Below are positions 51,320-54,154 of a DNA stretch of 64,000 nt, piece by piece. The stretch covers positions 1,323-65,322 of the forward strand of contig DASYLJ010000167.1 in the NCBI GenBank assembly GCA_036009625.1, read 5' to 3'. The notes under the pieces were generated by a model. It searched no databases and was not told where the DNA came from. It worked only from the letters and a program-made list of their open reading frames with translations. The stretch comes from Candidatus Binatia bacterium (GTDB lineage Bacteria > Desulfobacterota > Binatia > DP-6). Position numbers and translations under genes: made by a program. The stretch's first letter is position 1. The number at the start of each line of letters is the position of its first letter.

Positions 51320-54154
51320 ATGACGTTCTGGAGACGAGTTCCGTCCGCGCTTCTGCTTCTGGCCGCCGTATCGGCTGCACCGGCCATGGCCACCACCTGG
51401 GGTGTCCCGGGTGACGGGTCGAACGCCTGCACCACGGGTACGCCGAGCTGCAACACGATCGCTCAGGCGGTCACCGCGTCGAGCAACAACGACACCATCA
51501 ACGTCGGAGCCGGGAGCTTCGCGGTGCCGGCGACGCTGACGCTCACCAAGACGCTCACGATCGCGGGTGCGGGCCAGGCCAGCACCTTCCTGCAGCCGGG
51601 CGCCGGTCTCGCGGCGTTCTCGGTGCGCACGGACAACATCGTGCTGCGCGACTTCACCATCCAGAACGGCGCCACCGGCGTCGCGTTCCAGGGCACGTCC
51701 AGCAACAACACGCAGATCACGCGCGTGACGTTCACCGGCCAGAACTCGCGTGGCATCGACATCTCGCTCGGTGCCGCCACGCCGGTGAGCAACATCCAGG
51801 TCGCCGACAGCACGTTCACCACGTCGGCCATCGCGATCCGCATGTCGTCGCAGAGCCAGGTGACGGGCCTCTCGGTCACGGGCTCGACGTTCACCGGCAA
51901 CACCTACGGCATCTACCAGGCGAACGACGGCAACGTGTCGAAGCTCACGGGTCTCACCGTGCAGAACTCGACCTTCACCAACCAGGTGAACTACGGCCTG
52001 TACCTGGAAGAGGTCCGCGATGCGCTGATCGAGGCCAATGAGTTCACGGGTGGCGCGGTCGGCATCGGCGTCCTCAAGTTCTACACCAGCAACGGCGTCG
52101 CGGTGTCGAACGTCGTCATCCGCCAGAACACGTTCTCGGCGTTCAAGGCGAACGCGCTCGACTTCGAGATCTTCGGCTTCGGTCTCGAGACCGGGCTGAC
52201 GTTCGAGGGCAACACCGTGCAGAAGGACGCCGCCATCTCGACGTCGGCGGCCAGCACGTTCGTGCGGCTGAACCCGTCGGTCGTGAACGCGCAGGCCAGC
52301 TTCATCGACAACGACATCACCGTGTCGGGTGTCTTCGGTGCCGGCACGGCAGCGCACGCCATCCAGCTGCGCGGCAACGGCCCGGTGGTGATCACTGGTA
52401 ACGTGCTCGACGGCGGCAACGTCGGCGGTACGGCCGTGAACCCGCCCTCGTCGGGCATCTTCATCCAGTCGAAGTCGGGCACGACGATCATGCCGGCGAC
52501 GACGACCATCAGCGCCAGCTGCAACCGTATCCAGGGCTTCCGCAACGGCGTCAGCGTGTACGACAACGTTGCCGGCGCCTACGGTGGTCTCACCGCCGGC
52601 GCGCTCGTGACGCTGTCCGACAACGCCATCGAGAACAACAGCGATGCCGGTGTGGTCAATGGTGCTGCGGCGCCGACGGTCGACGCCGAGGACAACTACT
52701 GGGGCTGTCCCGACGGTCCGACGGACGGCGCCTGCGACAGCGCCGTCGGCAATGTCGACGCCGATCCGTTCCAGACCACGATTCCCGCGTGCGTCGAGTG
52801 CGTGGTGAACGGCGAGTGCAACGACGGCGCCTTCTGCAACGGCGGCGAGACCTGCAACATCGGCTCGGGCGCCTGCGTGCCGTCTGCTGATCCCTGCACG
52901 GGCGGAGCGACCTGCGCGAACCTGTGCAACGAGGCGGCGGACAATTGCTTCGTCCCGTCGGGCACCGAGTGCCGTGCGTCGGCCGGTGCCTGTGACGTCG
53001 CGGAGACCTGCACGGGTCTCGGCGGCGGCTGCCCGGTCGATGTGCTGGTGAGCGCCGGCACTGGCTGCCGGGCCTCGGCGGGTGCGTGTGACCTGGCCGA
53101 GACGTGTACCGGCTTGAGCACGGCATGTCCGGCCGATGCGAAGAGCACGGCTCCCTGCCGCGCCTCGGCGGGCACCTGCGACGTCGCGGAGAGCTGCGAC
53201 GGCGTGTCGGACGCGTGTCCGGCCGACGGCTTCGCGCTGCCGAGCACCGTCTGCCGCACGGCGGCTGGCGCGTGCGACCTGCAGGAGACCTGCACCGGGT
53301 CGGGTGCTGCGTGCCCGGCCGATGCGAAGAGCACGGCGGTGTGCCGTGGCGCGGCCGGTACGTGCGACGTCGCGGAGAGCTGCGACGGCGTAGGAAATGC
53401 CTGCCCGACGGACGTGTTCCAGCCGTCGAGCACGGTGTGCCGTCCGGGGTCGGGCGTGTGTGACGTCGCCGAGAGCTGCACCGGCTCGAGCGCCGTCTGC
53501 CCGGCCGACGTGGGTGCGACGGACACCGATGGTGACGGCACCTGCGACGCGCAGGACATCTGCCCGAACGTGTCGGATCCGGCGCAGCTGGATGGTGACA
53601 ACGACGGCTTCGGCGACGCCTGCGACAACTGCCCGGCGATCGCCAATGCCGACCAGGCCGACCTGGACGGTGACGATGCCGGCAACGTCTGCGATGCCGA
53701 CGAGGGCGTCCTCAACCCGACGAAGGTGCGCCTGAAGTTCAGCAGTGGCAGCCCCGACAAGAGCAGCACGTCGATCAAGGGCGACTTCGTGGTCCTCCAG
53801 CCCGGCGACGTGTTCAACGCCGCCGCGGGCATCGCGTTCACGGTCAGCGACGGCAAGCCGATGCCGACCGTGCGCACCACGACGTTCGCTCCGGCCGACT
53901 GCACGACCGCGTCGAACGGCAACAAGATCCTGTGCAAGACGGCCGATCGCGCCAGCAAGGCGACGTTCAAGACCGCGCCGTCGGCGAACGGTATCTGGAA
54001 GTTCAGCGCGAAGCTCAAGAAGCAGACCCTGACGGCGCCGCAGGTCGGCCCGTTGACGGTGACGCTCACCTACGGCCCGGCCATCGACCGGGTAGGCACC
54101 ATCGAGGACTGCGTGTCCTCGTTCACGACGCTCAGCTGCCGCAAGCGGCGCTAG
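51320..54154 (+). CDS. secreted parallel beta-helix protein with Cys-rich disintegrin-loop-like repeats, TSP3 repeats and a C-terminal beta domain
   Basis: GGAGGGG lies before the ATG. Signal peptide is [24 protein letters not shown]. PbH1-like repeats include [34 protein letters not shown] and VVIRQNTF. The Cys-rich repeats, TSP3 repeats and a K-rich beta tail follow. Confidence 0.85.
   Translation: [944 protein letters not shown]
52970..53512 (+). repeat. six in-frame tandem Cys-rich repeats, CR-x5-CD-x2-E-x-C-x-G-x4-CP-x-D
   Basis: Representative units are [48 protein letters not shown] and [24 protein letters not shown]. Units 2-3 and 4-5 form a 62-aa AB super-repeat with long identical DNA stretches (tgcgacgtcgcggagagctgcgacggcgt). 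Confidence 0.85.
53519..53708 (+). repeat. thrombospondin type-3-like calcium-binding repeats
   Basis: [60 protein letters not shown] follows the D-x-D-x-DG-x-x-D-x-C-D-N-CP grammar. Confidence 0.65.

Follow-up and report, generated by a model that had tools for sequence, protein, structure and literature searches.

The disintegrin domain is regarded as an invention of animals, known from ADAM and snake-venom proteins, and the locus described here raises the question of what six copies of something very like a part of it are doing in a bacterial gene. The gene lies on the forward (+) strand at 51296–54154 of a 64,000-nucleotide stretch of contig DASYLJ010000167.1 from a Candidatus Binatia bacterium (the window, by which the whole stretch analyzed is meant); its longest open reading frame (ORF), 952 amino acids (aa) from a GTG, is predicted to specify a secreted multidomain protein. 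Working from the DNA alone, the original prediction had placed in this gene six tandem units with the cysteine spacing of the ADAM disintegrin loop, joined by linkers of two alternating subtypes. A regular-expression scan with the strict motif CR-x5-CD-x2-E-x-C-x-G-x4-CP-x-D found them: there are exactly six in-frame matches, spanning 52970–53509 (aa 559–738), and no further copy in any of the six frames across the whole window. The units, all on the + strand and all with the strict motif, lie at 52970–53041 (unit 1, from aa 559), 53066–53137 (unit 2, aa 591), 53156–53227 (unit 3, aa 621), 53252–53323 (unit 4, aa 653), 53342–53413 (unit 5, aa 683), and 53438–53509 (unit 6, aa 715). Their spacing of 32, 30, 32, 30, and 32 aa agrees with the two linker subtypes, one short (..CPADAKSTA-) and one long (..CP-x-D-x-F/L-..STV).

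The pattern is far beyond chance. Shuffling the whole protein gave at least one match to the 17-residue calcium-site consensus, which the real protein carries six times, in 1 of 20,000 trials, and shuffling the Cys-rich segment gave at least one in 5 of 20,000. The GC content of the window is 71%, and the antisense ORFs over the region are the usual artefacts of high-GC DNA.

Homology to the Disintegrin Domain

Judged by sequence profiles and predicted fold, the six units are bacterial homologues of the Da "arm" half of the disintegrin-like domain found in ADAMs and in P-III snake-venom metalloproteinases (SVMPs). The whole protein scores 91.8 bits against Pfam Disintegrin (PF00200; gathering cutoff 35.1) in six stretches, and the isolated repeat region 114.4 bits; every stretch is confined to positions 45–75 of the 75 in the profile. 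The reverse comparison used a profile made from bacteria only (102 non-redundant units, 33 columns), searched against 177,635 PDB sequences: all 15 matches at E ≤ 1 were ADAM, P-III SVMP, or venom disintegrin chains, with catrocollastatin and bothropasin at the top (E = 9.6e-13) and aligned over the entire unit. An AlphaFold2 model of aa 545–760, computed from a 121-sequence alignment, has a mean predicted local distance difference test score (pLDDT) of 86, with units 2–6 at 91–98; among PDB entries, the 50 best Foldseek matches to it are all ADAM, SVMP, or disintegrin structures. The local root-mean-square deviation is 1.0–1.8 Å over 29–41 columns, and about 3 Å over 81 columns, i.e., more than two units, against RVV-X and VAP1; the Foldseek E-values are weak (≥0.02), the units being tiny. 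The likeness to the C-terminal hairpin half of the disintegrin domain, as originally proposed, is thus borne out by the Pfam match, the reciprocal PDB search, and the predicted fold alike.

The resemblance extends to detail. The bacterial units share with ADAM and P-III proteins the cysteine spacing C-x6-C-x5-C-x6-C and the consensus CR-x5-CD-x2-E-x-C-x-G-x-S-x2-CP-x-D, all three acidic Ca2+ ligands included; the predicted hairpin folds are alike, and core identity to catrocollastatin reaches 67% in a bacterial unit (16 of 24 residues in unit 2). The ADAM sequence CPADVFHKNGQPC even shows the CP-x-D-x-F-...-C continuation, with 11 residues to the next cysteine, that is seen in the bacterial units. 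The differences lie in extent and company: the window units hold only the last 31 of ~75 profile positions, in six head-to-tail copies instead of one, in a bacterial host, and with a beta-helix as partner rather than Ds, reprolysin, or ADAM_CR. A Pfam scan of the protein gave neither reprolysin nor ADAM_CR; ADAM10_Cys-rich reached 13.9 bits (cutoff 28), and there was no DUF4215 match. The CGN..E.GE.CD (Ds) module is likewise absent from the window protein, which contains no complete Ds plus Da domain (~75 positions, ~14–16 Cys). Nor does a purely bacterial Cys-repeat family, a match to which would by the original proposal have refuted it, claim any unit, as a scan of the repeat region against NCBIfam gave no match even at E ≤ 10, TIGR02232 included.

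Calcium Site III and the Loop

In ADAMs, calcium site III of Da has the consensus CD(X)2(E/D)XCXG(X)4C(X)2(D/N) and is deeply buried (Takeda 2016, PMC4885070). Its calcium is permanently bound, structural, and not exchangeable, and the homologous segment is a structural arm; the disintegrin-like loop is packed on the next subdomain, to which the loop cysteine ties it (Cys468-Cys499), and is inaccessible to protein binding (PMC4885070). The RGD/KGD venom disintegrins (trimestatin, echistatin, and rhodostomin) share with the bacterial units the hairpin and the equivalent of its C1-C4 disulfide, superposing at 1.0–1.7 Å over ~29–52 columns, but in the venom proteins the Ca2+ ligands and the loop cysteine have disappeared and the tip is a mobile RGD (PMC4885070), whereas the bacterial units retain both and lack an adhesive tripeptide.

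All six window units match the site III consensus exactly. Over 397 homologous units the sequence reads C-R(99%)-[AP]-[AS]-A-G(86%)-x-C-D(98%)-[VL]-A-E(92%)-x-C-[TD]-G(98%)-x-S-x-x-C-P(98%)-A-D(94%), with D9, E12, G16, P22, and D24 conserved at 92–98%, and where the venom proteins have their RGD loop the units have a conserved turn of small residues, R-[AP]-[AS]-A-G. The loops in the window (ASAGA twice, ASAGT, TAAGA, GAAGT, and PGSGV) stand where RGD or ECD is found in animals, just as first reported; no tripeptide of the RGD, KGD, or MLD type occurs at the tip in any of the six, and among 2,874 units RGD was seen five times and KGD twice. Because the conserved residues are those that ligate Ca2+ at the buried site III, and because the loop is a small-residue turn, the earlier description of the unit as an integrin-binding hairpin, and with it the idea of an adhesin or a mimic of extracellular-matrix ligands, is not supported; the unit is best described as a calcium-site-III module.

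Disulfide Connectivity

In the trimestatin and VAP1 structures the hairpin is reportedly closed by C1-C4, and in trimestatin C3 is said to pair upstream with the first cysteine of a CC doublet. The loop cysteine, C2, of ADAMs pairs downstream into Cw (PMC4885070). The window protein differs from ADAM and P-III proteins in that the partners provided there by Ds and Cw must come from neighboring units or from caps. If the units were self-contained, even numbers of cysteines would be expected on both sides of an array. The window protein has 15 cysteines upstream of the array, 24 within it, and 9 downstream. Counted downstream of the last unit, the cysteines come to an odd total in 24 of 25 family members, even though these have five different C-terminal domains, and in 113 of 150 independent representatives (binomial p = 4e-10). 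Where arrays contain insertions, 304 of 316 of these add cysteines in even number. The CC doublet is present in all 23 Ds-like CGN..E.GE.CD modules that directly precede a unit and in 12 of the 26 that do not, the other 14 being without it (Fisher p = 1.6e-5; 49 modules from the collected proteins). With moderate confidence, these counts and the analogy to ADAMs suggest a chain of C2(n)-C3(n+1) disulfides between neighboring units, with a cap at each end. Paired loss of cysteines was uninformative as a means of mapping the disulfides, as 569 of 577 units keep all four; the units that do not look like sequencing errors.

Bacterial Counterparts of Both Halves of the Animal Domain

The nearest bacterial comparison is TIGR02232 / DUF4215, the "Myxococcus cysteine-rich acidic repeat", which is likewise bacterial, tandem, acidic, and Cys-rich and comes from the same phyla. 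It is nevertheless a distinct module, corresponding to the Ds half of the animal domain and not to the Da half, and the NCBIfam and Pfam scans gave no hit to it in the window protein. The collected protein P0010 served as a positive control: TIGR02232 is found at aa 26–57 with 40.8 bits, directly before the first unit, and the module and unit together (aa 26–90) align end to end with the complete D domain of an elapid "K-like" SVMP (3k7n, E = 5.9e-8, 61 of 68 residues). Fusions of this type include the Ds Ca-site II motif CGN-x3-E-x-GE-x-CD along with the site III motif of the unit, and amount to an entire short disintegrin domain of the K-like SVMP kind. In all, 23 TIGR02232-type modules with the extra CC doublet (in P0010, P0033, and 21 others) are fused ahead of a first unit, and P0118 has a near-complete disintegrin domain, covering profile positions 8–75. 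From the P0010 alignment it follows that both halves of the animal domain exist in bacteria as separate modules and as fusions.

This suggests, as far as sequence comparison can, that two modules make up the animal D domain. A fuller and more tentative proposal, which we consider possible but hold at well short of even chances, is that the domain was assembled from bacterial Ds (TIGR02232-type, site II) and Da (site III) modules; that arrays of Da, with disulfides stapling one unit to the next, constitute an undescribed class of extracellular Ca2+-rigidified rods; that the ADAM D domain, along with its odd disulfides between subdomains, descended from such arrays or was exchanged horizontally with them; and that a protein assigned in UniRef to the amoeba Arcella intermedia represents an ADAM-like intermediate. 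That protein (P0236; UniRef100_A0A6B2KXD9) combines an M12 metalloprotease (HEIGHNFGLSH) with ~14 tandem units. Its protease domain is closest to bacterial M12 peptidases (from Kribbella, Ideonella, Planctomycetota, and others; 45–59% identity), in a search with a 270-aa query whose listed matches, at ≤473 aa, are probably too short to show repeats on bacterial M12 proteases. By these sequence matches the eukaryotic attribution appears doubtful, and the entry may be a bacterial contaminant or the product of a transfer.

Whichever way the domain moved, the bacterial units give a handle on its evolutionary origin or transfer. They would also offer structural and biophysical studies a minimal form of the ADAM arm that folds on its own, and they suggest a route by which the puzzling disulfides between ADAM subdomains could have originated.

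Proposed Role of the Array

The N-terminal domain (51392–52780, + strand) is a right-handed parallel beta-helix (Pfam Beta_helix PF13229, 52.8 bits; NosD, 24.6 bits), which confirms the scaffold originally named. It is the conserved core of the family, being kept in all 69 relatives, whether or not these have repeats, and no sequence relative of it was found in the PDB. Directly after the last unit, at 53510–53710 (aa 739–805, + strand), come acidic, putatively Ca2+-binding repeats (DTDGDGTCD...) of thrombospondin type-3 (TSP3) likeness with five cysteines; Pfam TSP_3 (PF02412) scores 18.2 bits there, below its cutoff of 25, NF047638 throspo3_MtsC of NCBIfam gives a partial match (E = 3.3e-13, 49 bits against a cutoff of 350), and AlphaFold models the segment poorly (pLDDT ~50). 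The C-terminal domain (53711–54151, aa 806–952, + strand) is predicted by AlphaFold, at a pLDDT of ~90, to be an all-beta, sandwich-like fold of 12 strands, and it terminates in a conserved Cys-x8-Cys loop and a basic tail. It has no Pfam match and no significant fold match in the PDB, and at least five other C-terminal modules replace it in relatives.

On balance, the array is probably a stalk, rigidified by Ca2+ and disulfides, in which the six Da-type modules and the TSP3-like repeats space the beta-helix from the C-terminal beta-sandwich. Following Sec export, each 24-residue core would fold as a small disintegrin-like hairpin closed by C1-C4, burying one Ca2+ between the Asp of CD, which is invariant, the Glu three positions on, and the Asp of CP-x-D. 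C3 would be stapled to an upstream cysteine and C2 to a downstream one, probably as C2(n)-C3(n+1), as ADAM Da is to Ds and Cw. The product would be a rod, rigidified both covalently and by Ca2+, that together with the adjoining TSP3-like Ca2+ repeats would fix the distance between beta-helix and beta-sandwich on a secreted or cell-envelope protein. The 69 relatives that share the beta-helix carry 0, 2, or 4–8 units and between them have at least five different C-terminal tails, transmembrane anchors included; the array is thus a modular insert of variable length. Arrays of cbEGF domains and of TSP3 repeats are likewise built from small disulfide-rich modules, each with structural Ca2+, and act as stiff, extended extracellular spacers. 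The comparison with the cbEGF arrays of fibrillin and with thrombospondin is one of function, the folds and motifs being unrelated, and the bacterial array would, on the proposed reading, behave as a rod; in the window protein the TSP3-like repeats directly follow the array.

Several observations weigh against a stalk. The AlphaFold models contain no ions, and Ca2+ occupancy is something that we infer. The C2(n)-C3(n+1) map is drawn from parity statistics and analogy, and on the upstream side the cysteine counts lean to neither parity (77 of 150 representatives), which is not the clean prediction of the chain model, although truncated N-termini or lipobox cysteines may explain it. Searches of the PDB by sequence and by fold gave nothing usable for the beta-helix or the C-terminal domain, the two domains that would be spaced. 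Lastly, the array is conserved between orthologs about as well as the other domains are (59–84% identity), which would allow a surface-binding role; per-domain conservation does not separate a spacer from a binder.

The alternative that survives best, though we think it unlikely, is one in which the repeats do the actual work of the protein, as a multivalent array for adhesion or ligand binding that presents a variable face (positions 7, 13, 15, and 17–20, and the linkers) to polysaccharide, mineral, or protein. Positions 7, 13, and 17–20 do vary on an invariant scaffold, the good conservation between orthologs would suit it, giant proteins with 20–44 units recall many adhesins, and partner domains include DUF11, PKD-like, and scytovirin-like lectin-type modules. 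However, no surface motif is conserved besides the structural residues, close relatives that keep the same beta-helix are free to have from 0 to 8 units, and the homologous segment of ADAMs is a structural arm (PMC4885070).

Less probable again is a high-capacity module that binds, buffers, or senses Ca2+ or a lanthanide, its six sites and the TSP3/EF-hand-like repeats sequestering metal in the envelope. In its favor are the six intact acidic coordination motifs followed by D-x-D-x-D-G repeats, and a HupE/UreJ metal-transporter gene situated 0.8 kb upstream; such a gene is found near the ortholog in locus L001 too. The D-x-D-x-D-G repeats match NCBIfam lanmodulin (E = 0.0054), but at 16.8 bits this is far under the cutoff of 135; no regulatory or transport partner is evident, and the Ca2+ of ADAM site III is buried, permanent, and structural (PMC4885070).

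Mimicry of a eukaryotic disintegrin or extracellular-matrix ligand, engaging integrins or other host receptors, is very improbable. The homology to disintegrins is genuine in sequence and fold, and unit 2 shares 16 of 24 residues with a snake-venom P-III sequence; against this, the loop has a conserved Ala/Ser/Gly turn in place of RGD/KGD-type motifs, reprolysin and ADAM_CR domains are lacking, and the gene comes from an environmental Binatia metagenome-assembled genome (MAG) with relatives in soil or sediment metagenomes. Finally, the thought that a small Cys/Gly/Asp-rich repeat merely imitates the motif by composition or convergence, to which the richness in Cys, Ala, and Gly, the high-GC genome, and the weak per-unit Foldseek E-values might lend color, is effectively refuted because the bacterial profile finds ADAM/SVMP/disintegrin chains only, down to E = 1e-12, and no EGF, knottin, or other Cys-rich PDB family; because P0010 aligns with 3k7n with its cysteines in register; and because shuffles yield essentially no motif matches.

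Distribution

A word-indexed search with the 181-aa repeat region as query returned at least 703 proteins at E ≤ 1e-3; it probably favored fragments, the longest homologue listed being 317 aa (~1.75 times the query). All 120 matches listed already have a precomputed PF00200 call, and the named sources among them are MAGs of Binatia, Deltaproteobacteria, Myxococcales, and Polyangiales; the orthologous loci come from MAGs of Binatia, a "delta proteobacterium", and Polyangiaceae. An exhaustive HMMER search with a single-unit profile against 1.84 billion cluster representatives gave 8,332 proteins at E ≤ 1e-3, a number expected to include single-domain animal ADAMs, and 2,149 at E ≤ 1e-30. The latter value is unreachable by one unit, so these must be multi-unit arrays; at least 2,149 protein clusters, mainly from uncultured bacteria (Binatia, Myxococcota), thus contain them. 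The largest proteins extend to 5,486 aa and contain as many as 44 HMM stretches or 34 units of strict spacing, mostly at a 32-aa period (range 30–32 aa). As other arrays reach 34–44 units, the six of the window are a modest, ordinary case, and to have called such an array unusual in bacteria was an overstatement, the repeat being abundant in bacterial metagenomes. Among the representative proteins P0190–P0339 are the giants with 20–44 tandem units; P0198 has a strict double-unit period of 60 aa, and P0203 (Binatia) combines 19 units with DUF11 domains.

Full-text literature searches found no paper describing bacterial disintegrin-like repeats; one Minicystis genome paper merely names the Pfam disintegrin family. 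Half of the disintegrin fold as an autonomous bacterial tandem repeat is therefore something that profile databases see and the searchable literature does not describe. It is a common, unannotated building block of large secreted proteins of Binatia and Myxococcota, which NCBI labels by their beta-helix only.

Age of the Duplications

The original prediction had also read long stretches of identical DNA in units 2–3 and 4–5 as a recent 186-bp duplication. Tandem Repeats Finder does report the 186-bp period, with 75% matches, but the two double units are only 74% identical in DNA (and 74% in protein), the longest identical run is 29 nt, and 19 synonymous and 16 non-synonymous codon differences are found in 62 codons. 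Over all pairs of units, core DNA identity is 65–78%; the closest pair is 3 and 5 (78%), and unit 2 is no closer to unit 4 (72%) than to unit 6. Given the low identity between units and the shortness of the identical runs, the duplications are old.

Translation Start, Export, and the Upstream Cap

The true start is likely the ATG at 51320, which gives a protein of 944 aa: a GGAGGGG Shine-Dalgarno sequence is located 7 nt 5' of it, and the ortholog P0122 is also 944 aa long. From this ATG a putative Sec-type signal peptide with an AxA cleavage motif can be read (51320–51391, + strand), and the protein is presumably exported; the ortholog consensus opens ..AAATTWxVPGDGS. The deposited NCBI protein of Candidatus Binatia bacterium (P0121) is 100% identical, starts at a position different from that of the 952-aa ORF, and is named "right-handed parallel beta-helix repeat-containing protein". 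The TSP3-like segment described above also has a weak NCBIfam match to an Omp28-related selenoprotein.

Between the beta-helix and the array lies a Cys-rich cap with 10 cysteines (52790–52954, + strand). It includes a module of the form C-x-DG-x-FCNG-x-E-x-C-x6-C (aa 503–537, nt 52802–52906) that is found in nearly all family members and often caps the arrays of other proteins. A profile of this module matches both repeats of the cyanobacterial lectin scytovirin (2jmv, E = 7.3e-5) in the PDB. Its interpretation as a degenerate disintegrin-like unit or as an equivalent of ADAM Cw was considered and rejected, hhalign giving a probability of 11% and the resemblance being to scytovirin instead.

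Genomic Neighborhood

The HupE/UreJ metal-transporter gene occupies 49413–50486, upstream of the repeat gene, and between the two is a gene for a PIN-domain (VapC-type) toxin on the – strand (50491–50865; Pfam PIN, 78 bits). Downstream, beginning 2 bp past the stop codon of the repeat gene, a second beta-helix protein of 743 aa is encoded at 54156–56387 (+ strand; Pfam Beta_helix, 30 bits). Its features are a long linker rich in Ser and Thr (TTTTTSSTTTSTTSTSS...) and a tail that is basic and helical; it contains no disintegrin-like units, and its adjacency is not conserved, as tblastn gave no match in eight orthologous loci. Further neighbors are DUF2950, DUF3300, and DUF3604; only DUF3604 and HupE are near the repeat gene in the ortholog locus L001 too. 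The neighboring genes give no functional clue. Farther away, the window contains genes for a PKD/Big_5 surface-type protein of 1,378 aa (38738–42874, + strand) and for a protein of 1,366 aa in which a Ser/Thr kinase is joined to cyclase, AAA_16, and TPR domains (21982–26085, – strand), which are ordinary chromosomal context for an environmental bacterium with a large genome.

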